Assembly: GCA_018175075.1 (NCBI GenBank)
Contig: GCA_018175075.1_4100.1
Source: a phage
Direction: 5' to 3' (one strand)
Length of the DNA: 64,000 nt
Shown here: positions 38,873 through 53,143 of the stretch, in pieces
Layout: each line of letters starts with the position of its first letter
Numbering within the stretch: the stretch's first letter is position 1
Translations under genes and position numbers: made by a program
The notes under the pieces: generated by a model
Database searches by the model: none
The model's input: the letters and a program-made list of their open reading frames with translations, nothing else
What the model was told of the DNA's origin: nothing

Positions 38873-39403
38873 AAACCCCGTAATCATAGGTAGTCATAAG
38901 TAATCATATATAAACATTTATATGAGCACCGTAGAATCACAGAATGATTATATATGATTCAGTACTGATTAGTATAGACAAGATTGCTCAAGAATGCACG
39001 GAAATGTGTGTGAATGATTCAGTACTGATATCCCACTAAGTAGGCAGAGGAAGTCTGCCGTACTTTGTAGTTTCCAAGCTCCTTTTCCATTTTGCAAATT
39101 ACATCAAATGTAATCAAAAGTAATCACACAATGATTAGTACTGAATTATTACTTTCACCTTAATTACAATTACCCTTTTACCCTTCGGGGTAAAATTCCA
39201 TTACCCCTTGAGGCTCCAGCAAAAAGTTGGTTAGTACTCCATCCTAAATCTCGATCCTAAAAATTTTGGAGTACCTATGAAATAAAAGTTGGATCTTCGA
39301 AAGTTGAAATTTACGTTGGGACGTTTATGATTTGTGGGATATAATGATGTTTGTAGTCGGGTAGTTCTCAAGAATATCAGTACTGAATGATGAAAGAAAG
39401 CTA

Positions 39404-39431
39404 TTGACTTTATGATTCAGTACTGTATAAT
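39404..39431 (+). promoter_or_regulatory. orphan promoter in the ORF-free hub
   Basis: TTGACT-N16-TGTATAAT-GTTTTACAT, same class as the mini-gene promoters. Confidence 0.55.
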
Positions 39432-39437
39432 GTTTTA

Positions 39438-39550
39438 CATAGAGAGATGAGTTGCCGCAAACAATTCATTCACTCTACTTCCTGTCGTGAGACAGTACAG
39501 AAAGATAGTTCCTCCTATGGGTGGTACATCTTTTAGAACCTCTTTTTTCG
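39438..39550 (+). ncRNA. candidate non-coding transcript (or 29-aa peptide mRNA, ORF 39447..39536)
   Basis: runs from the orphan promoter to T6 at 39543-48; contains CTGTC-GTGA-GACAG hairpin. Confidence 0.3.
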
Positions 39551-39819
39551 TAATATGAACAGTACTGATATTAACAGAATGGTGTCAGTACTGATTTTAA
39601 TTTAATGCATTATGCCACCAGCACAAGCTGGTGGATTCCCTCTAACAGTATTCAGTACTACATGATGGTCTTCATCCTCCTAGGGTAACATAGTGAGGGC
39701 TATGATGGCAGTACTGAATACTCCCTTTCAAAAGATAGATCTATGGTATAGTACTGACGGATTTTGGGCGTAGTTACCCTGGATGGATTTTGGGCGTAGA
39801 TATGTCTAGCCCTCCAGAA

Positions 39820-39950
39820 GTCTGGAAGTAAAGATGGCTATCCATCTAGACGGCTAAACGGCTAGATTTCTGGATGGCTGGATGGCTAGACGTTTGGACG
39901 GCTAAACGGCTAGATGGTTACACGTCTGGAAGTATAGACGGCTAAATCAA
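39820..39950 (+). repeat. iteron-like direct repeats
   Basis: GACGGCTAAACGGCTAGAT x2 (39849, 39897) + GACGGCTAAAT (39938); GGATGGCT x3; GTCTGGAAGTA x2; A/T tract follows. Confidence 0.6.
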
Positions 39951-40094
39951 AATTTTATTTTGTTTTTTCCAATAGTTCCCCTACCGCGTGGGGATAGTTT
40001 CCCCGCAGTATCTGGTGTTAGATTTTTCTGAATCTGGAATCATTATCTTATAAACTGGGGGCAATGTCAACGGCCTGGACGGATATTTTTAAAA

Positions 40095-40195
40095 ATTTTT
40101 TCAGTACTGAATTTTGGGCGTAACTATGCACCCGGTGGGCTGGAGTCTTTCTCGACTTGATGGAACTATTATACAGTACTGGAAAAATAAAGCAA
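40095..40195 (-). ncRNA. GGGTGC-core promoter-proximal RNA element, copy 1 (with promoter)
   Basis: TTGCTT-N16-TATAAT then ..GUCGAGAAAGAC..AGCCCACCGGGUGC..UACGCCCAAAAU. Confidence 0.35.
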
Positions 40196-40319
40196 TACCC
40201 TGGATGAAAAAAGTTTTAATTAATTTGCTTGCCATCCTGGGCCGGACTATGGTACTATAATTCAGTACTGAGAAAGTGCGTTAACCTGCTAGGGTGCGGG
40301 AGTGTATCCTTTTTTTATA

Positions 40320-40410
40320 TCTTGAATTTTGGGCGTAATTCCGCACCCTCTGGGGTTTCCGCTTTCTCGCGTCTATGTAGTAATTATACGCTTTTTCAGG
40401 ATCAAGTCAA
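40320..40410 (-). ncRNA. GGGTGC-core RNA element, copy 2 (with promoter)
   Basis: TTGACT-N16-TATAAT then ..CGCGAGAAAGCG..CCCCAGAGGGUGC..UACGCCCAAAAU. Confidence 0.35.
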
Positions 40411-40561
40411 TACCTAAAAACAAATAATTGAAAATAATTTAACGCGTTTAAACGGCCCGTAACGCCCTGGAATGATTAGAATGGTGCAAATGTATAGCTT
40501 AGGTGTATTAATGCGTTAGAATGCGTCTGAGGCCGTTTTATGGGGTGTAGTAGTGATTTGG

Positions 40562-40654
40562 TTGATTCAGTACTGAATAATAGTACTCCTATATAGAAAG
40601 ATAGTTCCCCTGGATTGATTCAGTACTGAATAATAGTACTCCTATATAGAAAGA
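40562..40654 (+). repeat. tandem direct repeat, period 53 bp
   Basis: TTGATTCAGTACTGAATAATAGTACTCCTATATAGAAAGA at 40562 and 40615. Confidence 0.7.
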
Positions 40655-40685
40655 AAACTATTTTAAAAGTACATGTAGAAAGTAC

Positions 40686-40745
40686 TTGCACCGTACTGAT
40701 AAAAGCGTATAATGTTTTACATCGAGAGCGGGAACACTTCCCGCT
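40686..40745 (+). promoter_or_regulatory. mini-gene promoter + 5'UTR hairpin unit
   Basis: AGTACTTGCAC..TATAATGTTTTACATC + AGCGGGAA-CAC-TTCCCGCT. Confidence 0.6.
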
Positions 40746-40768
40746 ACACTTTAAAAGAGATGAAAACG

Positions 40769-41131
40769 ATGGCGACTCAAATCAATAAAATCATGCTTAA
40801 CCTGGTAAACTTCCGCGATGAGATGAAAGGTCTTCCGGCTGAAACTGTAAAAATTCACATTGCAGCTTATCGGGAACTTATTGCAATGTTGCCGCTTAAG
40901 CGTGAACAATACGCCGCTACTTTGATGCTGGATTCAATGATCCATGTAATGATCTCAAATGATTTAACGATGGTTTATCAGTACATGGGAGAAAATTTCG
41001 CGGTGTGTAGTAAGCCAGTACCAGGGATGGCAACTACTGAGGAATTGCACGGTTTAAATTTAAAGCAAGATGCATGGGATAATATGCCTCGTTTCCTGGT
41101 ATGGGCTGACAGTGGCAAAATTTACAAATAA
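40769..41131 (+). CDS. hypothetical protein
   Basis: 120 aa from MATQINK; the track start 40712 lies inside the -10 box. Confidence 0.6.
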   Translation: MATQINKIMLNLVNFRDEMKGLPAETVKIHIAAYRELIAMLPLKREQYAATLMLDSMIHVMISNDLTMVYQYMGENFAVCSKPVPGMATTEELHGLNLKQDAWDNMPRFLVWADSGKIYK

Positions 41132-41145
41132 GTTTAATAAAGTAC

Positions 41146-41204
41146 TTGCAAACTATGTTTAATGGCGTATAATGTTTTACATCAGGTGGGGAATAGTTCC
41201 CCAC
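41146..41204 (+). promoter_or_regulatory. mini-gene promoter + 5'UTR hairpin unit
   Basis: TTGCAA-N16-TATAATGTTTTACATC + GTGGGGAA-TAG-TTCCCCAC. Confidence 0.6.
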
Positions 41205-41224
41205 TATATAAGAGGATTAAAAAA

Positions 41225-41464
41225 ATGGCTAAATCAAAAATGTTCTTAGGTCACAAAAACAAAACTCATTGGAATGTAAGCCTGTGGATTAATAACGATG
41301 AGGGATTGTATCGGTTGGCCCTGGATTTTATTAACGACAACACTAATCGCAATGATGCGGCCCGTCATATGATGTTATTTTTAGAACAGACTGGACAAGA
41401 TAAAACACCGGACGGATTCAAATATAGCACTACTGCGATCCGTGCGGCGATGGTTGGAATGTAA
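41225..41464 (+). CDS. hypothetical protein (paralog of 43265..43504)
   Basis: MAKSKMFLGHKNKTHWNVSLWINNDEGLY...TPDGFKYSTTAIRAAMVGM. Confidence 0.7.
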   Translation: MAKSKMFLGHKNKTHWNVSLWINNDEGLYRLALDFINDNTNRNDAARHMMLFLEQTGQDKTPDGFKYSTTAIRAAMVGM

Positions 41465-41554
41465 TAGAATAGAATTTATTTAAAGTACTATCGCAAAAAA
41501 TGATAGTACTTTATAATAGTGTTTTATTCATACACCAACGATAAGGGCAACAGC

Positions 41555-41818
41555 ATGAATATTAAGTATTTTGCGACGCGTGAACAAGCTCGGATCGCTG
41601 CACGCCAGGACGGGGCAACGTTTAAAGATATGGGCGTACAATCGGAACGTGGTAAACGTTGGGCCATTGTAAAGCGTAGTACCGCCAGATCATTACAGTA
41701 CTGGTTAGCGGCCTTAAAAAGTCCCGATAGTGTATCGCGTCGAGTGGTAGAAATAAAGCTCGACCGAAAGGGCAACCGCGTGACCGTGTACCGTACTAAA
41801 AAGATTGCAGTACTATAA
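41555..41818 (+). CDS. hypothetical protein (paralog of 54831..55226)
   Basis: MNIKYFATREQARIAARQDGATFKDMG...DRKGNRVTVYRTKK. Confidence 0.65.
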   Translation: MNIKYFATREQARIAARQDGATFKDMGVQSERGKRWAIVKRSTARSLQYWLAALKSPDSVSRRVVEIKLDRKGNRVTVYRTKKIAVL

Positions 41819-41826
41819 AAAAGTAC

Positions 41827-41885
41827 TTGCAAACTCTGTTTAATGGCGTATAATGTTTTACATCGAGAGCGGGAACACTTCCCGC
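41827..41885 (+). promoter_or_regulatory. mini-gene promoter + 5'UTR hairpin unit
   Basis: TTGCAA-N16-TATAATGTTTTACATC + GCGGGAA-CAC-TTCCCGC. Confidence 0.6.
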
Positions 41886-41906
41886 CTATAACCTGGAGTA
41901 ATAAAA

Positions 41907-42137
41907 ATGACTAATATGTATATGACTGAAGTTAAAACCGTAAAAGATACTACCACAAATAAAGTTACTTACTTACAGCGGATCTGTGGTGTATGGCAAC
42001 GTATCAGCAAATCAAAGTACTATAAATTAACATCATATGCAAACCGTTCTGATTCATTCAGTACTGAAATAAAAGGTAATAAAGTACACCAATACGGCAC
42101 TTATTATTATTACAGCCTGGACGCGATTGCAGTATAA
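41907..42137 (+). CDS. hypothetical protein
   Basis: 76 aa; promoter + GCGGGAA/TTCCCGC hairpin + GGAG SD. Confidence 0.65.
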   Translation: MTNMYMTEVKTVKDTTTNKVTYLQRICGVWQRISKSKYYKLTSYANRSDSFSTEIKGNKVHQYGTYYYYSLDAIAV

Positions 42138-42167
42138 GCAGTTTACAAATCTTTACAATTGCCGGTA

Positions 42168-42260
42168 TTGACTTATTTTGTCAGTACTGGCATAATGTAT
42201 TCATTGGCAGATAAGCCGTAGCCCATAGGGTGCGGGAGTGTATCTATAGAAAAATTAGTT
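42168..42260 (+). ncRNA. GGGTGC-core RNA element, copy 3 (with promoter)
   Basis: TTGACT-N17-CATAAT then ..GGCAGAUAAGCC..GCCCAUAGGGUGC. Confidence 0.35.
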
Positions 42261-42340
42261 TAGTATAGTTACAATTGTGCACCCGGTGGGTTAGCTGTTG
42301 TCATGGGGTATATTATGCCAGTACTGGATAGTGCTGTCAA
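42250..42340 (-). ncRNA. GGGTGC-core RNA element, copy 4 (with promoter), convergent with copy 3
   Basis: TTGACA-N17-CATAAT then ..ACCCACCGGGUGCACAAUUGUAACUAU. Confidence 0.35.
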
Positions 42341-42384
42341 TACTTTTTTAATATTCAGTACTGAAAACTATTTTTAAAAAGTAC

Positions 42385-42530
42385 TTGCAAACTATGTTTA
42401 AAGGCGTATAATGTTTTACATCAGGACGGGGAACGAAATAAGTAACTTCCCGTTAAGTAGCCCAGGAGTAAGGCACACGAAAAACTCCCCTGATAAAATA
42501 GTTTGACAATTGTTTTTAAAAGCGTATAAT
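42385..42530 (+). ncRNA. conserved ~80-nt leader RNA L1 between tandem promoters
   Basis: TTGCAA..TATAAT, AUCAGG..ACGGGGAA/UUCCCGU..UAAGUAG..GGAG/CUCC..CCUGAU, then TTGACA-N16-TATAAT. Confidence 0.4.
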
Positions 42531-42562
42531 ACTTACATCAACTACTGAATGAGGGTTACAAA

Positions 42563-43174
42563 ATGAAAACTATCACTACTACTACTTTCGTTATGGATTT
42601 TTCTGAATTGAACGCAGAACAAAAAACGTCAGCTATCGAACTGGTTCGGGAACGTGAAAAAAACTCAAACGACAATTATTTTTCTGAAAGTGAAATTGAA
42701 TACTATAAAGAAACAGTACTACCGGAATATGGCATTAATGACGCTGAAATACAATTCAGTGGCTTTTGGTCCCAGGGTGACGGTGCATCAATCAGTACTG
42801 ACCACGTTGACGCAGTGAAGTTTTTACGCAAGGTAAGAGCATTAACTAAGTATCGCTCAATCCGTCACCTGCTGAATGAAGATGATTTGGCGATGAGTGT
42901 AAAGCGTTCGCACTCCCACTACTCGCATGAGAATACTGTAAGCGGGTACATTGAATCGGCTTACACTGATTTAACCGCAAAACAAGAAACGTTAGTTAAT
43001 GAGCTTGAGGAACTACTCACTGAAACTATTCGTGAATTGTCCCGCAAGTTGTACCGTGATTTAGAGAATGCATATGAGGATCAATTCACCACTGAAAACA
43101 TTACGGCACTGATTGAGGGTAACGAATATCAATTCAATGTTATTGATGGCGTAGTAGAATCAATCGAATATTAA
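42563..43174 (+). CDS. hypothetical acidic protein
   Basis: 203 aa; FSGFWSQGDGASI motif; tandem promoters + conserved leader upstream. Confidence 0.7.
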   Translation: MKTITTTTFVMDFSELNAEQKTSAIELVREREKNSNDNYFSESEIEYYKETVLPEYGINDAEIQFSGFWSQGDGASISTDHVDAVKFLRKVRALTKYRSIRHLLNEDDLAMSVKRSHSHYSHENTVSGYIESAYTDLTAKQETLVNELEELLTETIRELSRKLYRDLENAYEDQFTTENITALIEGNEYQFNVIDGVVESIEY

Positions 43175-43185
43175 TTTAAAAAGTA

Positions 43186-43245
43186 CTTGCAAACTAAGTT
43201 TAAAAGCGTATAATACTTTATATCGAGGCGGGGAATGGTTCCCCG
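43186..43245 (+). promoter_or_regulatory. mini-gene promoter + 5'UTR hairpin unit
   Basis: TTGCAA-N16-TATAAT + GCGGGGAA-TGG-TTCCCCGC. Confidence 0.6.
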
Positions 43246-43264
43246 CTCAAACGAGGATTTAAAA

Positions 43265-43504
43265 ATGGCTAGTACTAAAACTTACAACGGTCACAAAAAC
43301 AAAACTCATTGGAATGTAAGCCTTTGGATTAATAACGGTGAGTCATTGTATCGGCTTGCTCAAAGTTGCATCGCACAAAGTAGAACTAAAGATATTGCTG
43401 CGGAATGTATGTACCGCAGATTAAAAGCCAACGGTACTACTACAACGCCGGACGGCTTTAAGTATAGCACTACTGCGATCCGTGCTGCAATGGTTGGAAT
43501 GTAA
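43265..43504 (+). CDS. hypothetical protein (paralog of 41225..41464)
   Basis: MASTKTYNGHKNKTHWNVSLWINNGESLY... Confidence 0.7.
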   Translation: MASTKTYNGHKNKTHWNVSLWINNGESLYRLAQSCIAQSRTKDIAAECMYRRLKANGTTTTPDGFKYSTTAIRAAMVGM

Positions 43505-43561
43505 TATTCAGTACTGAGATAATGGCGGGGAATGGTTCCCGCCTTTACTGAGGGTTATCTA

Positions 43562-43849
43562 ATGAGTAAAGTAATAAAGTACAATGTGTTAAGTAAATCA
43601 TTGTCTATCAGTGAATGCACCGATGGTTTTTGGATGTACGATGAAACGCGTGGCATGAATTTAGCTATGCGTGCAAAAACTGCTGAGGCGGCGTATATTC
43701 AAGCACTGGAATACTACCAGGAACGTTTAAAGGAAGTAGAAGAAGATTATAAAAGCCTCAAAGCGAAAGTAGATCATTTCGTCGGTCAATTCGTGGAAGA
43801 CAACGACGAGGACGGGCACTACTGCGACCGTTGCGGATCTTACAGTTAA
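43562..43849 (+). CDS. hypothetical protein
   Basis: 95 aa; leader hairpin GGCGGGGAA/TTCCCGCC; GAGGG SD. Confidence 0.65.
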   Translation: MSKVIKYNVLSKSLSISECTDGFWMYDETRGMNLAMRAKTAEAAYIQALEYYQERLKEVEEDYKSLKAKVDHFVGQFVEDNDEDGHYCDRCGSYS

Positions 43850-43866
43850 GTACTAAGGATTATATA

Positions 43867-44079
43867 ATGAGTGATTTAATTGAACGTATCAAAGAGCTTG
43901 AAGAAAAAGAATTGCAGTTGATCGGGTTACGGAATAAAGTATTCCATGATTTAGGTGGCTTTATTAATGCCTGGGATAGTGGCGATCCTGATGCGTTACC
44001 TGCTAACCGCCAGGCGATGATCAATGATGTGCGTGGTGTCTTTGAGTATGTTTTAAAAGTACTAGACACTAAGCAATAA
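43867..44079 (+). CDS. hypothetical protein
   Basis: 70 aa from MSDLIERIKE; AAGGA SD. Confidence 0.6.
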   Translation: MSDLIERIKELEEKELQLIGLRNKVFHDLGGFINAWDSGDPDALPANRQAMINDVRGVFEYVLKVLDTKQ

Positions 44080-44140
44080 AGGCGTATAATACTTTATATT
44101 GGTACTGACAAACATTATAAGCGATTCAGGAGCTTTAATC

Positions 44141-44326
44141 ATGACAACATTATCTGAGGTTATCCGCGTTCAAGCTGCAAAGGCTGGAATGACTGTTATC
44201 AATGTAGGGATCAAGATTGAGATCTCCCCTAACGAGTTGCAAGGGATTCCCGATCCTACTAGCTGGGATCGTGCTGGGCGAATGATGCGTAATGCTTCAT
44301 TACTGGACGGTACAAAATTTAATTAA
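44141..44326 (+). CDS. hypothetical protein
   Basis: 61 aa from MTTLSEV; AGGAG SD. Confidence 0.6.
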   Translation: MTTLSEVIRVQAAKAGMTVINVGIKIEISPNELQGIPDPTSWDRAGRMMRNASLLDGTKFN

Positions 44327-44333
44327 AAAGTAC

Positions 44334-44392
44334 TTGCAATTAGTTTTTAGTACTGTATAATGGTTTACATCAAAGGGAGAAATGGTTCTCCC
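44334..44392 (+). promoter_or_regulatory. mini-gene promoter + 5'UTR hairpin unit
   Basis: TTGCAA-N16-TGTATAAT + GGGAGAA-ATGG-TTCTCCC. Confidence 0.6.
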
Positions 44393-44411
44393 TGGTAATG
44401 AGGAAAATAAA

Positions 44412-44633
44412 ATGGCTAATATCACTACTCTTTCCCAACTGGAAGCACTGGTTAAATCTATGCGGGAACATGCCGACAAAATCGGCGTACAAGATCCAGC
44501 CGTTTGCTTCTGCGACGAAATGAATGATGATACACTGGTAATAGCAGAAGTCCAGGACGTTTCTAACTATTCCTCGCGTTACACTGGCGGCGTAGCAAAT
44601 AAAGGTGACTTCTGTTTATACCTTACAAAATAA
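44412..44633 (+). CDS. hypothetical protein
   Basis: 73 aa from MANITT; promoter+hairpin; terminator follows. Confidence 0.65.
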   Translation: MANITTLSQLEALVKSMREHADKIGVQDPAVCFCDEMNDDTLVIAEVQDVSNYSSRYTGGVANKGDFCLYLTK

Positions 44634-44638
44634 CAACG

Positions 44639-44668
44639 CGGGGAGATAATAACTCCCCGTTACTTTTT
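44639..44668 (+). terminator. intrinsic terminator
   Basis: CGGGGAG-ATAATAA-CTCCCCG + TTACTTTTT. Confidence 0.6.
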
Positions 44669-44768
44669 CAGTACTGAATCATTTAATAGACGGATCTCGG
44701 CACCCGGTGGGTTAGTGACTGTTTCGTCTTGATGTAGTAATTATGCCAGTACTGGATGCACTTGTCAA
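44639..44768 (-). ncRNA. GGGTGC-core small RNA candidate, copy 5 (promoter to hairpin)
   Basis: TTGACA-N17-CATAAT (44763-44740); ..GACGAAACAGUC..ACCCACCGGGUGC..; ends at CGGGGAG/CTCCCCG hairpin. Confidence 0.4.
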
Positions 44769-44876
44769 CAACTATTTTTCAAATACTTTTTATTAAAATA
44801 CTTGCAATTAGTTTTTAAACGCGTATAATGTTTTGCATAGGGGGAGCGGTTCCCCTGGTAACTAAGGAATAATAAA

Positions 44877-45113
44877 ATGCTTGAACAAATCAAATCAACG
44901 TCTGCGAATGTAACGGGAACGGTAGCACACTTTACTAGTGATGAATCGCGGGGCGTTCCCTATTGTGCTGTACATGTAAACACTGAGGGTAACTACTGGT
45001 TTACGGTTTACGGATCATATTCATTTGGACGGCCTGGACATCAAAAAATTCTGGATAAAGTACAGCCAACGGGTAAAAATATCACTGCTGAAATGTTTTA
45101 TAAAAAATCATAA
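44877..45113 (+). CDS. hypothetical protein
   Basis: 78 aa; promoter+hairpin+AAGGA SD. Confidence 0.65.
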   Translation: MLEQIKSTSANVTGTVAHFTSDESRGVPYCAVHVNTEGNYWFTVYGSYSFGRPGHQKILDKVQPTGKNITAEMFYKKS

Positions 45114-45198
45114 AGTACTTGATAATAGTTTTTAGTACTGTATAATATTTTACATCGCAAGGGGGGAGCGGTTCCCCCTGGTAACTAAGGATAATCAA

Positions 45199-45498
45199 AT
45201 GAAAATTGCAATCATCGCCCTGGCTTTATCTGTTTCCTCTTTCGCTGTTAATGCGTCGTTAGATGTAAGTAGTGAAAAATTCATTCAGTGCACTGTAGCG
45301 ATGACCAATGAAAGTACTGGCGAGATTGTTTTAAAGGATTTAGAGATCCAGCCAGAAGCATTTAAAAACGGGCCGTTCCATGAAGAAGACGAAAAAGGTA
45401 GCACGACAATTTATTACGATGCAAGTACTAAACGCGGTTCGGTCACTGTTATGGATACTGAGAAAGTAACGCATTCCGGCGTTATTAATTGCCGTTGA
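45199..45498 (+). CDS. secreted small protein, two-Cys type
   Basis: signal peptide MKIAIIALALSVSSFAVNAS; FIQCTV...GVINCR. Confidence 0.65.
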   Translation: MKIAIIALALSVSSFAVNASLDVSSEKFIQCTVAMTNESTGEIVLKDLEIQPEAFKNGPFHEEDEKGSTTIYYDASTKRGSVTVMDTEKVTHSGVINCR

Positions 45499-45519
45499 TA
45501 GATACTACGGGGTAACATC

Positions 45520-45750
45520 ATGACTAAGCGAATTGTTTTACTTAACGAAAGCAGTACTACACAACTACTTAACGCCGTGCATTATGATATTGAAACGAGC
45601 GTTAATCTTATCAGTACTGTAGTACTGTTGGACACTGGAAAGGTCGCCAATGATAAAGCGATTGCAGGTATATTAACGGATCTTGAGCCTGGTAGCAGTG
45701 CACCAATAACGTTAAATGGTAAAGTGTTTAATATTTTACTCACTGATTAA
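45520..45750 (+). CDS. hypothetical protein
   Basis: 76 aa; followed by strong terminator. Confidence 0.6.
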   Translation: MTKRIVLLNESSTTQLLNAVHYDIETSVNLISTVVLLDTGKVANDKAIAGILTDLEPGSSAPITLNGKVFNILLTD

Positions 45751-45756
45751 GTACAT

Positions 45757-45779
45757 AGCCCACCTGGTGGGCTTTTTTG
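45757..45779 (+). terminator. intrinsic terminator
   Basis: AGCCCAC-CTG-GTGGGCT + T6. Confidence 0.7.
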
Positions 45780-45867
45780 TTTTTGTAGTATCGTAGTACT
45801 GAGATACTTTGAAAATAGTTTTAAAAAAATAGTTGACATTACCGCAAAAAGGCGTAGAATATATTAC

Positions 45868-45940
45868 ATCAAGACGGGGAGCACTAAGTAGACCGCCAGT
45901 AAGTCGAACGAAAAACTGGACACGTCGAGAAAACTTTGAT
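45868..45940 (+). ncRNA. leader RNA L3 (diverged copy)
   Basis: AUCAA-GACG..UAAGUAG..CCAGU-loop-ACUGG..CGUC..UUGAU nested pairs after TTGACA-N16-TAGAAT. Confidence 0.35.
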
Positions 45941-45983
45941 ACACTAATAAACGTAAACTAAACTTTAATTGAGGATTTATAAA

Positions 45984-46466
45984 ATGGCTAATGTAAAATC
46001 ATTCATCAAAGCACTGGTAGCAAATGAAACTAACGTCGCGGCTGAGATCCTGGCTGAACTGGATAACGATACCATGAAAGCGGTACGCAATAATTTTAAC
46101 ATCGCTTACAGTACTGCGAAAGAACTACAAGCAAATAAAGCGGCAGAAATTGAAGCGGCAAAGGCGGCCCGTGAAGCAGAACTACAAGCAACAATTGAAA
46201 GTATTCAGGCGGCAGTAGTTGGATTGGATCTGGAAGTAGTTACAGAGATGGCACAAAAAGCCCTGGCGAAAAAGTACGGTGAAGATAAGCCAGAAGTAAA
46301 AGCTAAAAAATGGATTCAAGAACGTGTAGCGGTAGTACTTGATAACGGGGAAGAATATCTGATTCCGGTGCGTGGTAACTGCATTGCGGTAGTACTGGAT
46401 GCGATTAACTCCAGTGGTATGACTCGCGAGGAATGGATCGAAGCTCATCGCAAAGTTGAAGCATAA
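45984..46466 (+). CDS. hypothetical Ala/Glu-rich helical protein
   Basis: 160 aa from MANVKSF; GAGGA SD; ~110-nt structured leader. Confidence 0.65.
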   Translation: MANVKSFIKALVANETNVAAEILAELDNDTMKAVRNNFNIAYSTAKELQANKAAEIEAAKAAREAELQATIESIQAAVVGLDLEVVTEMAQKALAKKYGEDKPEVKAKKWIQERVAVVLDNGEEYLIPVRGNCIAVVLDAINSSGMTREEWIEAHRKVEA

Positions 46467-46487
46467 CAATTAAAGTACTGAATCATT

Positions 46488-46514
46488 AGCCCACTTATAC
46501 AGTGGGCTTTTTTG
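46488..46514 (+). terminator. intrinsic terminator
   Basis: AGCCCACT-TATAC-AGTGGGCT + T6. Confidence 0.7.
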
Positions 46515-46750
46515 TGTTTATCGTTTACCAGGCCACCAGCACCGCCTAGAAACGATTCTAACGTATTAAACTGTTTATCTGATGCATTGCCCTAGCTGGT
46601 GGCGTTAAAGTCGTTAGAATGCGATTGAGTGCGTTTAAAGTATTTTGCAAAAAGTAATAAAAAGTACTTGCACGATTAAGAGATTAGCGTATAATGTTTT
46701 ACATCGAGAGGGGGAAACGGTTCTCCTTCCAAATCAAAGGAATCAAAACA

Positions 46751-46978
46751 ATGGCTATTATCATTACTCGCGTATCTGGTACTACTGGCAACGAACAAGT
46801 AGTTGCAGTCATTACCAACAAGGAAGGTGCGGAATTGCAAAATGCAATGAATACCTGGGCCGTTAATGAGTTCGGTCAGTGGGCAAGTGTAGCATACATT
46901 GAAACCTATCAAGTGCCGTCGATTAGTTTAACTGATTTGGGCGTTGAGCGTATCCTTTGCCTTGATGAATTAAATTAA
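46751..46978 (+). CDS. hypothetical protein
   Basis: 75 aa from MAIIITRV; track start is a -10 box artefact. Confidence 0.65.
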   Translation: MAIIITRVSGTTGNEQVVAVITNKEGAELQNAMNTWAVNEFGQWASVAYIETYQVPSISLTDLGVERILCLDELN

Positions 46979-47064
46979 AAAAGTACTTGCAAAGTAAATC
47001 GAATAAAGTATAATACATTACATCAAGGGGAGAAAATGGTTCTCCCCACTACAAGGAAACTAAA

Positions 47065-47208
47065 ATGAAAACTTGTCAATGTGGTCAGAAATCTATTACT
47101 GGTTTAAAGCGGGGCGTTGCTCTTTGCCAGTACCATTATAATTTACAAGTATGGGGTAAAGAATGGGCCGACCAGGTGGAAGCAGCAAAGAAAGCAAAAA
47201 GTAAGTAA
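47065..47208 (+). CDS. 47-aa Cys-rich small protein
   Basis: below track cutoff; promoter+hairpin+AAGGA SD; MKTCQCGQ...ALCQYH. Confidence 0.5.
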   Translation: MKTCQCGQKSITGLKRGVALCQYHYNLQVWGKEWADQVEAAKKAKSK

Positions 47209-47268
47209 AAATATTATCACAGTACTATTGACATAGTTTGATAGTACTGGCATAATAGATTTTATCAA
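47207..47268 (+). repeat. type-2 ~60-bp promoter repeat
   Basis: AAAATATTATCACAGTACTATTGACATAGTTTGATAGTACTGGCATAAT..; TTGACA-N17-CATAAT. Confidence 0.6.
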
Positions 47269-47287
47269 AACAACTGAGGAAAATAAA

Positions 47288-47500
47288 ATGGCTATCATCA
47301 CTAAAATCAAAGTTAACAAGACTATCGTTAAACTGGCAGAAGTGAAAGAAGGTTATAAAGTATCTTGGTGCGGTATGTATCGGACGTTCGCAGATATAGA
47401 TGATGCAATCAATTACTACACTGACACGGTTAAAAACTTTGTTCGTGCTGATGTGGTTATGGCAGTGGCAACATATAAAGCAGCGAAAGAAAGTAAGTAA
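47288..47500 (+). CDS. hypothetical protein (paralog of 50419..50598)
   Basis: MAIITKIKVNK...; type-2 promoter repeat upstream. Confidence 0.65.
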   Translation: MAIITKIKVNKTIVKLAEVKEGYKVSWCGMYRTFADIDDAINYYTDTVKNFVRADVVMAVATYKAAKESK

Positions 47501-47560
47501 AAATATTATCACAGTACTATTGACATAGTTTGATAGTACTGGCATAATAGATTTTATCAA
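47499..47560 (+). repeat. type-2 ~60-bp promoter repeat
   Basis: near-identical to 47207 copy, including the upstream gene's last codons (AGTAAGTAA). Confidence 0.6.
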
Positions 47561-47589
47561 GACAACATATTAATTTAAGGAATACAAAA

Positions 47590-47913
47590 ATGGCTAAAAC
47601 TATCATTAACACCGTTTCCCTGGCTGCAATCCGTGCAATCAATGTTGACGGTAAACGTTGGACTGATTCATATGGCAATACTTATCATTCTTGTCATGTA
47701 AGCGTTGAACTGGATAACGGTTTGAATGATCTGGCGGTTGAATCATTTACTTATGGCTATGAAGATGCATATCAACAAACGGCGTTATCTCTCTTAAAGG
47801 AATCAGTAGACGGGCTTAATACTGATGAAACCTCCCTTACTCGTTTGTGTAATGATTTGTCTATCCCGTTGCATTGTACTGTACAGAATGTTAAACGCAA
47901 AAAAGATCTTTAA
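47590..47913 (+). CDS. hypothetical protein (paralog of 54412..54735)
   Basis: DGKRWTDSYGNTYHSCHVS...FTYGYEDAY...VKRKKDL. Confidence 0.7.
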   Translation: MAKTIINTVSLAAIRAINVDGKRWTDSYGNTYHSCHVSVELDNGLNDLAVESFTYGYEDAYQQTALSLLKESVDGLNTDETSLTRLCNDLSIPLHCTVQNVKRKKDL

Positions 47914-47993
47914 TTAGCTTTACTTTATGCAGATACTTTGATATAGTGTCTGCATAGGGGAAAGAAATTAAATTAACTTAAGAGGATCGTATA

Positions 47994-48263
47994 ATGAAAA
48001 ATATCAGTACTTTAATCGACGCAGGTACACATGTTCGGCGGTCTATGGTTGCAACCAGTACTACAAAACAAGTAGCGAGCGGTTATCTTGTATTTGTGCA
48101 CGATGGTAAACTCCTGGAACGTTCAATCAATTTTGATGTTAAAAACAATTGCCGTTTTATTATCTTTAAGCGTGAACAATATAAAATCGATTTGCCAGCA
48201 AAGCCCATTAGCGGGGCGTACAACGTGCAATCATTGTTTGAGCGTCAACCTTACACCTATTAA
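47994..48263 (+). CDS. hypothetical protein
   Basis: 89 aa; AGAGGA SD. Confidence 0.6.
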   Translation: MKNISTLIDAGTHVRRSMVATSTTKQVASGYLVFVHDGKLLERSINFDVKNNCRFIIFKREQYKIDLPAKPISGAYNVQSLFERQPYTY

Positions 48264-48314
48264 TCAAAACATCGTTAGCGGTCGTTTTAGGCCGCTTATA
48301 TTGGGGATTATACC

Positions 48315-48587
48315 ATGAACGTTAATCAAGTACTGAATGAGATCGAAAGCATCATTAAACCGATGAAGCGTACTGATGCTATGTTAACACCGGAAGAATG
48401 CCGCCTTTATGAGCGTTACAGCGTCGAACAAGTCCAGGCAATGGCTATGGCTACCCCAGCCGTTAAACCGCCTGAGAATGCGTTACAGGACGTTACAGGG
48501 GATTATATCATCAATCCAGTACTAGGGAAGATGGCTGCAATCACCGAAGATCAACAAGACTACTTAAGCCAGTACTTAAAAGGTTAA
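48315..48587 (+). CDS. hypothetical protein
   Basis: 90 aa. Confidence 0.6.
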   Translation: MNVNQVLNEIESIIKPMKRTDAMLTPEECRLYERYSVEQVQAMAMATPAVKPPENALQDVTGDYIINPVLGKMAAITEDQQDYLSQYLKG

Positions 48588-48592
48588 TTAAT

Positions 48593-48802
48593 ATGCTTAC
48601 TGTACAGGATAAGATCGACATCTTAAAGGTTAATATGTATGTGATTGATGCAGTACCTGGTAAAGTATTTGCATACGATGACACCACTGTAAGCGATTTC
48701 TACTATAGCCAGGCCGTGGGGGATCTTTCTGTACAGTCGGTTATTGAAAACGTAGTTAATGCAGCGTATGAGCATTTACTTTCAAATAGTACTTGCAATT
48801 AG
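48593..48802 (+). CDS. hypothetical protein
   Basis: 69 aa; last codons (STCN*) double as the next -35 region. Confidence 0.6.
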   Translation: MLTVQDKIDILKVNMYVIDAVPGKVFAYDDTTVSDFYYSQAVGDLSVQSVIENVVNAAYEHLLSNSTCN

Positions 48803-48871
48803 TTTTTAAACGCGTATAATGTTTTACATGAAGGGGAGAAATGATTCTCCCCACTAATTAAGGAATATGAA

Positions 48872-49018
48872 ATGAAAGCATCAAAAAAGAGTACTAACAA
48901 GAAAGCACGTTCAACCTTAGATGGGGTATTCCCTTTACGTTTCGTTGATGAAGTGGTTTCCTACCCGCCTGGCCTTACTCCTGAGATGGTAGAAAGTTTG
49001 CGTAAATCTAAAAAATAG
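48872..49018 (+). CDS. 48-aa basic small protein
   Basis: below track cutoff; promoter+GGGGAGAA/TTCTCCCC hairpin+AAGGA SD. Confidence 0.5.
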   Translation: MKASKKSTNKKARSTLDGVFPLRFVDEVVSYPPGLTPEMVESLRKSKK

Positions 49019-49021
49019 TAC

Positions 49022-49081
49022 TTGCAATTAGTTTTTAGTACTGTATAATGTTTTACATGAAGGGGAGAAATGATTCTCCCC
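49022..49081 (+). promoter_or_regulatory. mini-gene promoter + 5'UTR hairpin unit
   Basis: TTGCAA-N16-TGTATAATGTTTTACAT + GGGGAGAA-ATGA-TTCTCCCC. Confidence 0.6.
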
Positions 49082-49099
49082 AATAACAGGAGAAACAAA

Positions 49100-49252
49100 A
49101 TGAAACAATACAACGCTCGGTTTGATGTTACTATCGGTAACGGCAAAGGTCAATTCTCTTTCAGTACTCGCCGCAGTTATACAGAAAACTTCCTGCGTAA
49201 TTGTGCACTGACCGCCGCACAAATTAAACATTACTTTCAGGCTAAAAAATGA
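49100..49252 (+). CDS. 50-aa small protein
   Basis: start MKQYNARF after promoter+hairpin; track start is an artefact. Confidence 0.55.
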   Translation: MKQYNARFDVTIGNGKGQFSFSTRRSYTENFLRNCALTAAQIKHYFQAKK

Positions 49253-49338
49253 AATCATTAGCTTATTACAGTTCGGCCCTGGTCGGTGCATTGATCGCGG
49301 CATTGTTAGTAACCTATCTATTCTTTATGGTGATTTAA
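49249..49338 (+). CDS. 29-aa single-pass membrane peptide
   Basis: ATGA coupling; MKSLAYYSSALVGALIAALLVTYLFFMVI. Confidence 0.4.
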   Translation: MKSLAYYSSALVGALIAALLVTYLFFMVI

Positions 49339-49473
49339 ATGAATCCTAACGGTATAATTTACAGTACTCCTAAAACGAAAGCAGACAAGGTAAACGCTAA
49401 AAAAGCGAAAGTAAAGGAGTACATCAAGCAAGGCATGACGCGAAAGGCCGCAGTACTTAAAGCTAAAAAATAA
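49339..49473 (+). CDS. 44-aa Lys-rich small protein
   Basis: ATG directly after upstream TAA; followed by hairpin-promoter at 49484. Confidence 0.4.
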   Translation: MNPNGIIYSTPKTKADKVNAKKAKVKEYIKQGMTRKAAVLKAKK

Positions 49474-49483
49474 ATGAAAAAAG

Positions 49484-49570
49484 TGGTTGACTTCGGTCAG
49501 CCATTTTGCTATTATATATTCATTGAGAGATAGCTCACTAGCCCACAGGGTGCGGAAGTGTATCTATTAT
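49484..49570 (+). promoter_or_regulatory. fused terminator-promoter hairpin + GGGTGC-core element, copy 6
   Basis: TGGTTGAC-TTCG-GTCAGCCA; TTGACT-N17-TATTAT; ..UGAGAGAUAGCUCA..GCCCACAGGGUGC. Confidence 0.55.
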
Positions 49571-49687
49571 ATAAGTATTGAGTACTGAAAACTATTTTTA
49601 AAAAGTACTTGCAAACTATCTCAATAGGCGTATAATGTTTTACATCGAAAGGGGAAACGGTTTCCCCTGGTAATAAGGAAACAAATC

Positions 49688-50029
49688 ATGACTATTGCAA
49701 TTGCTCAATCTAACTTTGAAAATGAAATCATCGCTCAGACACTGCGTTTAAGTGATGGTCGGGCCGAAATTAATTACGGTTTCAATTCAGGCGGTTGTGA
49801 AAAATATCAGTACTTTGTAACGGCTGATGGCGGTGTCCTGGGTATCAATACAGTTATTGTAAACATACAGAAAATTAATTTCAATGATCCAGACGATAGC
49901 CAGTTTTACATCACAGGCGTAGACGTGAACTATGAGGATGACTCACTAACTGATGATCACACTGGCGAGCGGTTAGAAAGTGCATACGGTGAAGATGATT
50001 ATCAGTCCGGTCCAGAAGATTTCGAATAA
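49688..50029 (+). CDS. hypothetical acidic protein
   Basis: 113 aa; promoter+hairpin+AAGGA SD. Confidence 0.65.
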   Translation: MTIAIAQSNFENEIIAQTLRLSDGRAEINYGFNSGGCEKYQYFVTADGGVLGINTVIVNIQKINFNDPDDSQFYITGVDVNYEDDSLTDDHTGERLESAYGEDDYQSGPEDFE

Positions 50030-50122
50030 TATAAAAAATAGTTTGACAATAGATTATAGTACTGTATAATAGTTTACATCAAGGGGAGAAATGATTCTCC
50101 CCACTAACAGAGAGAAAACAAA

Positions 50123-50335
50123 ATGGCTAATATCTGCACTGTACTGAAAAATGCAAAACAAGTTTTATTTTCTGATCACGATCATTTAAACAAGGATATT
50201 ACTGGCGTTCGGAATATCAAAGATGTAAAAAGTGTTATGGGTATCTATTGCAATATGAAACGTGTTGGAACGTTCGGCGACAAAGTACTATACCAGGCAG
50301 GGGATTACAATTTTACACTGACTATCATTAACTAA
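50123..50335 (+). CDS. hypothetical protein
   Basis: 70 aa; promoter+hairpin. Confidence 0.65.
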   Translation: MANICTVLKNAKQVLFSDHDHLNKDITGVRNIKDVKSVMGIYCNMKRVGTFGDKVLYQAGDYNFTLTIIN

Positions 50336-50395
50336 AAATATTATCACAGTACTATTGACATAGTTTGATAGTACTGACATAATAACTTTTATCAA
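50334..50395 (+). repeat. type-2 ~60-bp promoter repeat
   Basis: same repeat; -10 CATAAT. Confidence 0.6.
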
Positions 50396-50418
50396 CTACA
50401 CTACTAAGGAATTAAAAA

Positions 50419-50598
50419 ATGGCTATCATCGCAAAAACTGAAATCGTTGGTCTGGATTCTATCATCATGACGTTTGAAGATCAAAAAGGTATGTATGTAG
50501 TTTCATATGGTGATTATGTTCGGGAGTATGAAACGGTAGACGAAGCCTTTGAAAGTTATATTCGCCAGGTGAATAAAGCATACGACGACTACCGCTAA
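50419..50598 (+). CDS. hypothetical protein (paralog of 47288..47500)
   Basis: 59 aa, below track cutoff: MAIIAKTEIVG...; type-2 promoter repeat. Confidence 0.55.
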   Translation: MAIIAKTEIVGLDSIIMTFEDQKGMYVVSYGDYVREYETVDEAFESYIRQVNKAYDDYR

Positions 50599-50655
50599 AA
50601 TATATTACCAGTACTATTGACAACGTTTGATAGTACTGTATAATAAGTTTTATAA
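50597..50655 (+). repeat. type-2 promoter repeat (variant)
   Basis: ..CCAGTACTATTGACAACGTTTGATAGTACTGTATAAT. Confidence 0.55.
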
Positions 50656-50688
50656 ACAGTAGTTAACTTAACCTAAGAGAGAAATAAA

Positions 50689-50832
50689 ATGATCGCACTG
50701 GATTCATTCATCGACGCAGTACTGGCAAAAACTGGCGAGGATCTGACCGCAGAACAATACGCAATGATCGAGCAATGCCAGCAAGACGGTAAATCGGTGA
50801 AAGATACTGTTAAGATTATCCGCAAGATGTAA
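50689..50832 (+). CDS. 47-aa small protein
   Basis: below track cutoff; AGAGAG SD-like; MIALDSFIDAVLAKTG... Confidence 0.45.
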   Translation: MIALDSFIDAVLAKTGEDLTAEQYAMIEQCQQDGKSVKDTVKIIRKM

Positions 50833-50937
50833 TATTATAGCCCACTGGTTAACGCTGGTGGGCTTTAATTCATTACCCTATACAATGCCAGTACTAAACC
50901 GTTTATCTCGTTAGAATGCATTACAGGACGTTTGACA

Positions 50938-51135
50938 ATGATTAGCATGAAATCAGTACAAAAACAAATAGAAACATTATCAAAAATTAAACGTAAACAG
51001 TACTCGTTAGAATATACAATCAATGGTAACTATCATCTAATGAAAGAAAATAATTTTATAGTCATTGATGAATCATTGCAAATCATTAGTATAGTACTGA
51101 AAGCATTAATTAATGATAGAAAAAAATTAAAATAA
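50938..51135 (+). CDS. hypothetical protein
   Basis: 65 aa from first ATG; atypically AT-rich; weak signals. Confidence 0.35.
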   Translation: MISMKSVQKQIETLSKIKRKQYSLEYTINGNYHLMKENNFIVIDESLQIISIVLKALINDRKKLK

Positions 51136-51139
51136 TCTA

Positions 51140-51235
51140 TTGACAATATCCTCCAGTACTGGCATAATACTTACATCAAGACGAGAACGTCACTAACCCA
51201 TAGGGTGCACAAATGTAACTATATAACATCGATCA
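51140..51235 (+). ncRNA. GGGTGC-core RNA element, copy 7 (with promoter)
   Basis: TTGACA-N17-CATAAT then ..GACGAGAACGUC..ACCCAUAGGGUGCACAAAUGUAACUAU. Confidence 0.35.
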
Positions 51236-51303
51236 ATAAATGATCAAAAAAGTACTGGATCAATTTAGCATAAGGCGTATAATTCTGATCAATTCTTGAT
51301 CAA
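51231..51303 (+). promoter_or_regulatory. GATCAA cluster around a promoter (operator / Dam-site candidate)
   Basis: five GATCAA in 73 bp; TATAAT at 51278-83; palindrome TGATCAATTCTTGATCA at 51286-51302. Confidence 0.45.
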
Positions 51304-51464
51304 AGGCAATATACGCAGTTGAATTTATATAGACAGTACAAAGGCGTTACTATCCGTGGTAATGCTGGTGGATATGTAGTATCATGTGGTTTGAATAAGA
51401 TTAGCACTAGTAGTATTATTGTAGCATTACAGTACTATAGTATTTTTATAATGAGGTTAAAATA

Positions 51465-51722
51465 ATGGCAGTAGGATACGCGAAAGACGGGGCCGAACAA
51501 GACGAGATTAACGCAGTGATTCAGGCCGCCGTTAACCACGCTAGAAAGCAAATTAACGCACAAAGAGAATCACTAGTACATTGCCTCGACTGCGGCGATA
51601 AAATCCCTGAGAATCGACGCCAGGCCGTTATAGGGTGCATGTATTGTATTACTTGCCAGGCGGATCATGATAGTACTTTTAAAAGAGATCCGCGTAATTG
51701 TTGGCATAGATCTATGAGATAA
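51465..51722 (+). CDS. TraR/DksA-family C4 zinc-finger protein
   Basis: CLDCGDKIPENRRQAVIGCMYCITCQ = CxxC-N17-CxxC with the IPxxRR motif. Confidence 0.8.
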   Translation: MAVGYAKDGAEQDEINAVIQAAVNHARKQINAQRESLVHCLDCGDKIPENRRQAVIGCMYCITCQADHDSTFKRDPRNCWHRSMR

Positions 51723-51786
51723 AAAGTAATTGACAGTACTGAAAGATAGTGTATAATGTTTTATATCTTAAATGAGGATAGAAATC

Positions 51787-52143
51787 ATGGGAATACAACA
51801 TATCACGCGTACTACTGACAATGGCGAGATCACTGGTTATCAGGTACAGGGCAAAGTAGCACAATTGCAGTACTGGTTTGTTAAACGTGGAATCATTGCA
51901 CCGGATCTTGATTATGACCGTGTTGCTTTCATTGATTCTCTTTATGTTGATCCTGATAGTCGGGGCAATGGTGAAGGTAACGAATTAATGAATGCCTTTA
52001 TCGATGCCGCCGATGATTCAGATTGTATCATCTTAGAATGCGATACGGGAGAAGATAACGCCTTTAATCTTAAAGAATGGTACGAAGGTTTCGGATTCGA
52101 GGTATTGATAGATAGTGAATATCCTATCATGATTTTATCATAG
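51787..52143 (+). CDS. GNAT-family N-acetyltransferase
   Basis: YVDPDSRGNGEGNELMNAFID (motif A-like), WYEGFGFE; GAGGA SD. Confidence 0.7.
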   Translation: MGIQHITRTTDNGEITGYQVQGKVAQLQYWFVKRGIIAPDLDYDRVAFIDSLYVDPDSRGNGEGNELMNAFIDAADDSDCIILECDTGEDNAFNLKEWYEGFGFEVLIDSEYPIMILS

Positions 52144-52215
52144 TACTTGCATTTAGTTTTCAGTACTGTTATAGTACTTACATCAAGGGGAAACATCTTC
52201 CCCTACTAAGAGGAA

Positions 52216-52410: not shown

Positions 52411-52437
52411 TATTAATTTAATAGAGGATAACAATAA

Positions 52438-52761: not shown

Positions 52762-52844
52762 AAACTATTGACAAGATAATCTAGTACTGTATAATAAGTT
52801 ACATGAAGGGGAGAAATGATTCTCCCCACTGAGAGGAAAGAAAA

Positions 52845-53057: not shown

Positions 53058-53143
53058 AAAGTACTTGCACAGTACTGAATAAAGTGTATAATGTTTTATA
53101 TCGGAAGGGGAATAGTTCCCCTCCCAACAAAGAGGAAAGTATA

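Follow-up and report, generated by a model that had tools for sequence, protein, structure and literature searches.

Two facing promoters in the terminal repeat of an Asteriusvirus jumbo coliphage are likely to drive paralogous members of a multi-copy small RNA family

The stretch analysed here, referred to as the window, comprises 64,000 nucleotides of phage DNA (NCBI GenBank assembly GCA_018175075.1, contig GCA_018175075.1_4100.1), and the element in question is a pair of facing promoters at positions 42168–42340, each followed by what appears to be a short structured RNA of a phage-specific family. The window derives from an Asteriusvirus jumbo coliphage of the PBECO4/121Q type, the region being 94–98% identical by BLAST to other jumbo coliphages of this genus such as vB_Ec-M-J, G17, PBECO4 and 121Q. 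In vB_Ec-M-J it falls within the annotated direct terminal repeat (positions 1–21525, about 21.5 kb). Window position 39039 aligns with position 1 of both vB_Ec-M-J and E9.1, which marks the beginning of the terminal repeat and therefore places the site about 3.2 kb from the left genome end; a hub free of open reading frames (ORFs) at about 39039–40700 forms the extreme left end itself. All plausible genes of the terminal repeat are on the + strand. The site occupies a 425-bp gap between the + strand ORFs 41907–42137 and 42563–43174, a gap in which no ORF of at least 40 aa is found (the largest there are at most 31 aa), and its − promoter faces the antisense strand of ORF 41907–42137. The features of the site are as follows, HP1 and HP2 denoting the first and second hairpin of a unit.

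42168–42196, + strand: promoter of the + unit, TTGACT-17-CATAAT, matching the consensus at 10/12 positions, with the −35 TTGACT at 42168–42173, CAGTACTG at 42182–42189 in the 17-bp spacer, and an extended −10 TGgCATAAT whose −10 hexamer lies at 42191–42196.
42197–42253, + strand: predicted small-RNA unit (covariance-model match of 54.8 bits, E 7e-11), with a likely start near 42203 (the A of CAT), HP1 at 42205–42218 (UGGC-AGAUAA-GCCG), the core CCCAUAGGGUGC at 42222–42233, HP2 formed by 42228–42233 paired with 42240–42245, and the tail AUAG.
42246–42266: A/T-rich spacer of 21 bp between the two HP2 hairpins; in other phages the palindrome AGTACT is found in the same place.
42259–42315, − strand: predicted small-RNA unit (43.7 bits, E 5e-8), with a likely start near 42304–42305, a C/A-rich leader CAUGACAACAGCUAA without HP1, the core CCCACCGGGUGC at 42290–42279, and HP2 formed by 42284–42279 paired with 42272–42267.
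42312–42340, − strand: promoter of the − unit, TTGACA-17-CATAAT, matching at 11/12 positions, with the −35 TTGACA at 42340–42335, CAGTACTG at 42319–42326 in the spacer, and the −10 CATAAT at 42317–42312.

An earlier note on this DNA had described two strong promoters firing into each other across an imperfect inverted repeat with GGGTGC cores, and both parts of that description hold: a consensus scan recovers the two promoters and finds the TG of an extended −10 in each, and the cores, GCCCATAGGGTGC at 42221–42233 and GCACCCGGTGGGT at 42279–42291, are complementary at 10/13 positions and separated by 45 bp. A terminator scan reported no intrinsic terminator (a G+C-rich hairpin followed by a U-run) between 42168 and 42340. 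Hence, unterminated transcripts would overlap from about 42203 to about 42305, that is over about 100 nt, as the same note had calculated. Such a read-through RNA would fold into a long imperfect hairpin (−42.7 kcal/mol, z −6.3, for the + strand; −28.8 kcal/mol, z −5.2, for the − strand) and would also be complementary to the transcript of its partner.

The two halves of the site are not confined to this position. The motif CCCANNGGGTGC occurs in 10 exact copies in the window (11 if one mismatch is allowed), where 0.86 would be expected, and when the copies are lined up on it they share one anatomy, consisting of a promoter, about 30 nt, the motif, four variable nucleotides and a (G/A/T)TGTATCTAT-like sequence. 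A covariance model, R1, built from 57 members over 58 positions (HP1, CCCA-NN-GGGUGC and HP2), was run on the window with its filters off and returned 10 strong matches (41.7–69 bits) and one degenerate match (19 bits), all between 40108 and 59095. Since the repeat starts at 39039, all copies in the window lie inside the terminal repeat, and nothing convincing was found in the other 43 kb. Membership being defined by a match to R1 preceded at a set distance by a sigma70 promoter, both units at the site belong to the family. The remaining copies in the window are the following.

40108–40165, − strand: single member, unit A, 43.1 bits, with HP2 GGGUG/CGCCC.
40258–40380, both strands: convergent pair in the hub, paralogous to the pair at 42168–42340, with model matches of 19 (+) and 41.7 bits (−).
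40258–40317, + strand: degenerate + copy of the hub pair, whose HP2 is followed by U7 and thus has the form of an intrinsic terminator (40291–40310 in the scan).
40323–40380, − strand: − unit of the hub pair, with its promoter at 40410–40383.
44680–44737, − strand: single member, unit D, 51.2 bits, with its promoter at 44768–44740.
49516–49573, + strand: single member, 69 bits.
51171–51228, + strand: single member, 53.1 bits.
53507–53563, + strand: single member, 53.3 bits, with the −35 of its promoter within the terminator hairpin of the upstream gene.
56779–56836, + strand: single member, 67.4 bits, with its promoter −35 within the upstream terminator hairpin.
59039–59095, + strand: single member, 58.2 bits, with its promoter −35 likewise within the upstream terminator hairpin.

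The hub pair includes the head-on arms that the earlier note had likened to the present site (AGGGTGCGG at 40291 and CCGCACCCT at 40341); the likeness is real, and the 5 nt between its two model ends equal those between 42253 and 42259. In several of the + copies the −35 TTGACT is embedded in the terminator hairpin of the preceding gene (GGGATTGACTCCGGTCAGTCCCTTTGCTATTAT), so that the unit would start afresh once upstream transcription ends. Terminator-shaped hairpins (for example GGGATTGACTCCGGTCAGTCCC followed by TTTGCTATTAT) also provide in this way the −35 and −10 hexamers for the small-RNA promoter that follows, at about 49490–49515, 53478–53506, 56750–56778 and 59010–59038 of the window, and the same overlap is conserved in RaK2, GAP32, CBB and Munch.

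Over RaK2-like genomes and contigs, R1 gives 91 matches. BLAST picks up the + unit together with its promoter in the Klebsiella phages RaK2, K64-1 and Muenster, and also in Pectobacterium phage CBB, Cronobacter phage GAP32 and Salmonella phage Munch; a pattern scan of IMG/VR adds many further copies in uncultured jumbo contigs of about 345–380 kb. Among 80 non-redundant units, 70 carry a promoter matching TTGACA-N16-18-TATAAT at 10 or more of 12 positions and keeping its −10 at a constant distance to the start of the model, against 33 of 2000 control 44-mers from the same DNA (1.65%). On 620 kb of unrelated viral DNA the model returned zero matches. A widening of the family by means of an HP1 14-mer was abandoned, as it yielded 120 chance matches with zero R1 matches among them, and this set was reused as a negative control.

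Outside these phages the family appears to have no counterpart. Rfam 15 gave no match at gathering thresholds over the whole window, and at E values up to 10 over 40000–42450 only chance-level matches, none aligned with either unit (two of them overlap the site, starting and ending elsewhere). ARAGORN found no tRNA or tmRNA gene in the window, and a resemblance to pseudoknot PK1 of tmRNA (CCCAAGGUGC) was dismissed, as R1 has no match in E. coli ssrA. A counterpart or mimic in the host was likewise rejected: BLAST against 5,426 E. coli genomes gave no match to the family, and a core-plus-HP2 pattern in 596 Gb of bacterial genomes gave 12 scattered, chance-level matches, all of at most 32.6 bits and none enterobacterial. 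No description of the family came up in literature searches on the motif or on small RNAs of RaK2-like phages, those with the exact motif returning only unrelated primers and sequences, and the CBB paper lists only RpoD-like promoters and does not describe it. The family is therefore undescribed in the sources searched; as phage-encoded small RNAs its members are of a known kind, with an unusual architecture in their many copies, their restriction to the terminal repeat and their convergent pairs.

A published parallel in location comes from PA5oct, a related jumbo phage with non-coding RNAs in its long terminal repeat, where ncRNA001 and ncRNA002, of 236 and 451 nt, are highly transcribed throughout infection by RNA-seq (PMC7318152). 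They were discarded as expressed homologues, since the best R1 match in the PA5oct terminal repeat has 14 bits and an E value of 0.7.

Each unit has the same internal order, with the promoter followed by a start that would fall on the A of CAT, HP1, a linker of 3–4 nt, the core CCCA-YA-GGGUGC and HP2, and with about 40–45 nt from start to the end of HP2. The core is invariant as CCCA-NN-GGGUGC, 12 bp with two central N. HP1 sets in 2–5 nt past the presumed +1; its sequence varies among copies and its pairing is kept, with 32 distinct stems of 3–5 bp (for example UGGC/GCCG, UGAG/CUCA, GACG/CGUC, CGC/GCG, GGAG/CUCC and AGACA/UGUCU) closing purine-rich loops (AGAUAA, GAGAAA, GCGAAA, AGAACAA). In the model-based alignment all four of its four pairs are changed on both sides, the cells with two-sided changes numbering 116 against 53±5 after shuffling, a value reached in 0/500 shuffles, and the covariation score is 0.381 against 0.208 when shuffled and at most 0.094 with a slid partner. 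Because this alignment is fitted to the structure, an alignment-free test was added, in which the best hairpin ending 2–6 nt before the core scored 7.9 on average, against 3.9±0.4 for shuffled leaders with a maximum of 5.3 in 500. In a minority of copies, including the − unit at 42259–42315, a C/A-rich unstructured leader takes the place of HP1.

HP2 (5–6 bp) pairs GGGUG(C) with a downstream arm such as GUAUCU (consensus RYRYCY), which varies essentially only in ways that keep the pairing, U or C opposite G and A or G opposite U; its cells are paired in 90–91% of cases, compared with 31–68% in slid registers. As most of these pairs are G·U, which on the other strand become C·A, the helix forms only on the strand that the promoter transcribes. 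RNAalifold favours an alternative mini-hairpin, RCCC-AYA-GGGU, for which there is one compensatory variant, CCU/AGG; as modelled, it shares GGGU with HP2, which would make the two mutually exclusive, and a switch between them is possible. Several readings of these segments were tried and set aside, namely a mini-ORF (G/A/U)UG-UAU-CUA-UAG in HP2 (not kept across members, and with a Shine-Dalgarno-like GGAG directly against the start codon), an EcoKI site in TAACCCACCGGGTGC (which has N7 where AAC-N6-GTGC is required), the pairing of the HP1 loop AGAUA with UAUCU that appears in the minimum-energy fold (no covariation in other HP1 classes), and HP2 as a general intrinsic terminator (runs of at least four T occur in only 16 of 82 family tails).

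This strand-bound structure bears directly on the view that the site acts as DNA and that any RNA is incidental, be it as a cruciform, a recombination or inversion site, a protein site composed of an inverted pair of CCCANNGGGTGC boxes, or a replication origin primed by transcription. A 12-bp core that is invariant but for two central N is what many DNA-binding sites look like, the units lie near the genome end beside a tandem array of 8-bp repeats, origins of the T4 type use promoter-driven R-loops, and the single strands of the site can fold as DNA (−16.2 and −13.7 kcal/mol over 103 nt). Those DNA folds are interrupted, however, and a two-sided cruciform cannot form where the G·U pairs of HP2 become C·A; the arms match at 10/13 positions only and enclose a 45-bp interrupted centre; and the covariation of HP1 is strand-specific and tied to promoter direction. 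Furthermore, single units are the majority in the family, and no inversion or insertion at the site is present among 36 relatives, a comparison that the earlier note had named as a check. Its suggestion of a cruciform or recombination site is not supported, and the whole DNA-level view is very improbable. An apparent insertion in relatives, suggested by two-piece BLAST matches over about 1.47 kb, was also ruled out, the distance between the flanking genes being 429 bp in E9.1 and 426 bp here; the extra piece is probably the repeated early promoter in the first 100 or so bases of the query matching an upstream copy.

Comparison with 8 diverged Asteriusviruses shows the two promoters in place, both cores intact except for a deletion in the unverified CMSTMSU record, and the HP2 arms retained. 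The + promoter is unchanged in the 8 orthologues; in the − promoter the −35 is kept in 8/8, and the −10 varies in sequence and stays a good hexamer (TATAAT in CMSTMSU, for example). Changes among orthologues are located in the HP2 loops, the spacer and the leader/HP1 cassette. The + unit of 121Q, TH47 and A4 has AUUG-AAACGAA-CAAU where the window has UGGC-AGAUAA-GCCG, and in WPEC3 and EJP2 the leader of the − unit carries an HP1 (GAC-GAGAAA-GUC), so that the leader/HP1 of both units is swapped as a cassette among otherwise near-identical orthologues (window 42138–42372 compared with 121Q, TH47, A4, WPEC3 and EJP2). As read from these alignments, the swaps point to recombination or gene conversion among the dispersed copies of the family. 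Public annotations overlay the convergent pair with small hypothetical ORFs (121Q gene 270, A4_267, WPEC3 CDS064 and CDS065, E9.1 CDS0011) whose frames are not kept between relatives because of indels and these cassette swaps; to judge from the sequences, they are probably mis-annotations.

Close neighbours in the list of R1 matches are almost all convergent. The model ends of convergent pairs are separated by 5 nt (8 cases and the hub pair), 16 nt (2) or 23 nt (4), no divergent pair within 400 bp is found in the list, and the sole tandem pair in that range is 157 bp apart. GAP32, CBB, 121Q and several uncultured contigs all have convergent pairs, which differ in their HP1 cassettes, and in several of these pairs the palindrome AGTACT is the centre of symmetry. 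It lies within 48 nt after HP2 in 54/83 units (65%, against 24% of controls), with a peak at 5–9 nt. The fixed spacing of the pairs would be accounted for by a palindromic 3' element common to both units; in the window pair, however, the centre of symmetry is degenerate. The counterparts of the + unit in RaK2, CBB, GAP32 and Munch have no convergent partner, and the basic entity is therefore the RNA unit and not the pair.

This last point is relevant for the idea of a regulatory sense/antisense RNA pair or of an interference switch in which one promoter represses the other. In its favour, the starts are some 100 bp from each other without an intervening terminator, complete transcripts of the two would be complementary to one another, the geometry of the pair is kept across genera, and CAGTACTG, present in both promoter spacers, could be an operator. 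Coliphage 186 offers a precedent in pR and pL, face-to-face sigma70 promoters of unequal strength whose transcripts overlap by about 60–100 nt and which serve operons of opposite developmental fate. Like these, the two promoters at 42168–42340 are convergent, of the sigma70 type and with overlapping transcripts; unlike these, neither drives anything but a paralogous small RNA, and with both close to consensus there is no obvious asymmetry. Neither leads into a gene or an alternative operon, and with no ORF of at least 40 aa downstream of either promoter in the intergenic region the paired operons of a 186-type developmental switch are absent. In addition, most family members, as well as the counterparts in the four phages named above, are single, and selection is seen on structure within each RNA and not on complementarity between RNAs. 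A regulatory pair is thus distinctly unlikely. Of the sense/antisense or collision scheme put forward in the earlier note, both the overlap and the collision are possible, given the missing terminator and the conserved geometry, and the regulatory switch fits less well; their role is probably in the formation of 3' ends.

A different role in cis would be that of a promoter-adjacent RNA that controls early read-through, either by processive antitermination, as with HK022 put or lambda nut, or as an attenuator in which the CCC:GGG mini-hairpin competes with HP2. The put RNA binds the zinc-binding domain of the beta' subunit of RNA polymerase and suppresses termination, and there are several reasons to consider a relationship of this kind: the element begins virtually at the +1 of a strong early promoter and, like putL, forms two hairpins, the purine-rich HP1 loops resemble boxB, GGGU is able to pair with CCC or with the 3' arm of HP2, the + strand single units are placed right after an upstream terminator and before the next gene, and a few copies have a U-run after HP2. 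The RNAs of HK022, putL and putR, are early-region RNAs just downstream of strong sigma70 promoters and require a defined fold with two hairpins (PMC9378689), and the family units share this promoter-proximal position and the two hairpins. However, put has a length of about 70 nt and two long, irregular stems, occurs at two sites per genome and is always co-oriented with the antiterminated operon, whereas the family RNA has about 45–58 nt and two far shorter hairpins, and of the 10 strong copies here, all of which adjoin promoters, 4 are oriented against all genes of the repeat. The genes downstream own their promoters, and unit D leads straight into a terminator-like hairpin about 20 nt downstream (44659–44639), which the scan called on both strands. 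No similarity between put and the family is evident by eye, no alignment or search having been made between them.

The resemblance to the lambdoid nut site, where HP1 as a short variable stem with a purine-rich GNRA-type loop would correspond to boxB, is a lead only. The core GCTCTTTA of boxA (CGCUCUUUA-like) is absent from the terminal repeat; its 3 occurrences in the window all precede position 7400 and are at chance level. The nut site also differs in that some units of the family face against genes and that CCCAYAGGGUGC has no counterpart in nut, and no N-like protein was identified. Taken together, a role in cis is unlikely.

The arrangement is best explained by two paralogous small structured-RNA genes of a phage-specific family, placed tail to tail and each with its own sigma70-type promoter, a reading to which we assign a probability of about 0.65. 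The inverted repeat is the family core as it appears on either strand, and follows from this placement of the two paralogues. The earlier note had the promoters, the cores, the repeat and the likeness to the hub right, and missed that each promoter with its core is a member of a multi-copy RNA family.

Under the small-RNA reading, host RNA polymerase would read both promoters as immediate-early promoters once the terminal repeat enters the cell, and each would yield a short RNA whose conserved part ends about 40–45 nt from the start. The two elongation complexes would have to meet within the 21-bp spacer, and because no terminator lies there the 3' ends would probably be set by head-on collision or by a roadblock. 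Alternatively, read-through RNAs may be processed, for which the long hairpin or the pairing with the partner transcript would suit RNase III.

It is plausible, with lower confidence than the presence of the RNAs, that they act in trans, as abundant immediate-early transcripts that engage a conserved protein, of the host or of the phage, through their invariant core. Features that speak for a trans-acting RNA are the copy number, the near-consensus promoters of host type, the restriction to the terminal repeat, the use of both strands, the 5'-proximal hairpin and a core invariant across phages of five host genera. Phage decoy RNAs such as RNA anti-CRISPRs and pseudo-ToxI are similar in concept only, being small structured multi-copy RNAs with their own promoters that could titrate a protein; the family copies differ in being dispersed and not tandem, and no similarity to CRISPR repeats or ToxI was apparent on informal comparison. 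More speculatively, the family may represent a new class of multi-copy immediate-early RNAs of RaK2-like terminal repeats that act stoichiometrically on a conserved protein, as decoys, in anti-defence or by modifying polymerase, through the CCCA-YA-GGGUGC hairpin, with convergent pairs as a module that shares a palindromic 3' element and forms its 3' ends by head-on collision; we regard this wider proposal as tentative.

Several observations weigh against free small RNAs as the product of these loci. The start sites and 3' ends are predicted positions, and the core is invariant and does not covary, which leaves room for recognition at the DNA level. HP2 and the RCCC-AYA-GGGU mini-hairpin are both weak as well as mutually exclusive. 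Most + strand single units have no terminator before the promoter of the next gene, and given the scarcity of T-runs in the tails they could be 5' leaders of longer mRNAs. Searches with Pfam and PHROGs brought up no RNA-binding domain in the 49 ORFs of the terminal repeat, and no candidate partner or target emerged.

The family is kept across at least three genera, and about 10 copies per repeat amount to about 20 per virion DNA. By analogy with T5, the terminal repeat is probably the part of the genome that enters the cell first, and copy number, promoters and early-entering location together suggest an RNA that is needed quickly and in quantity during host takeover. In a phage group used for therapy and biocontrol, the family supplies defined candidates for RNA-based takeover or anti-defence, with predicted starts, structures and an invariant motif that make them testable. 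Phage small RNAs are poorly catalogued, and the terminal repeats of jumbo phages are annotated almost wholly as 'hypothetical protein'. The finding also corrects the records that overlay the units with small hypothetical ORFs.

The 49 + strand ORFs of the terminal repeat (window 40712–60340) are nearly all of unknown function. Pfam matches among them, not tied to individual ORFs, comprise a ParE-like toxin domain, a GNAT acetyltransferase, several DUFs and a DksA/TraR zinc finger, the latter a possible RNA-polymerase modulator. ORFs 41162–41464 and 43235–43504 are paralogous, with two segments that are 84–89% identical and lie exactly 2040 bp apart (window 41221–41466 and 43261–43506). An orphan standard promoter with a leader hairpin and AGGAG lies at 42385–42500 with no start codon after it, which looks like the remnant of a lost gene; behind it, ORF 42563 has a perfect-consensus promoter (12/12) at 42503–42530.

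The palindrome CAGTACTG found in both promoter spacers occurs at 64 sites in the window against about 1 expected (for example at 42182, 42319, 42356, 40102, 40174 and 40263), often within promoter spacers, the TG of the extended −10 then being part of it. CAGTACTG or AGTACT could be an operator or roadblock site for some protein. The ORF-free hub also holds, some 800 bp in from the left end of the genome, about 16 tandem 8-bp units (RGAYGGCT, 39816–39943) that are reminiscent of the short repeats arrayed next to the terminal repeats of T7-type genomes and could be a packaging or replication signal. Chi, GCTGGTGG, is present in 15 copies in the window against 0.69 expected, 11 of them in the terminal repeat (39615–39634, 46533–46602 and 50854–59129, with others at 13407 and 27458–27978). 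Among these 11 are an inverted double copy some 580 bp in from the left end of the genome and a set of seven at 50854–59122 that share the + strand. Some family promoters in other phages have CCACCAGC in the spacer, and the Chi enrichment may protect the linear ends against RecBCD. A second repeated module is the standard early-gene promoter, AAAAAGTACTTGCAA-N16-TATAAT, present in at least 10 copies (40678, 41138, 41819, 42377, 43179, 44326 and others), with a 5' leader hairpin CGGGGAA-NNN-TTCCCCG directly before the ribosome-binding site.

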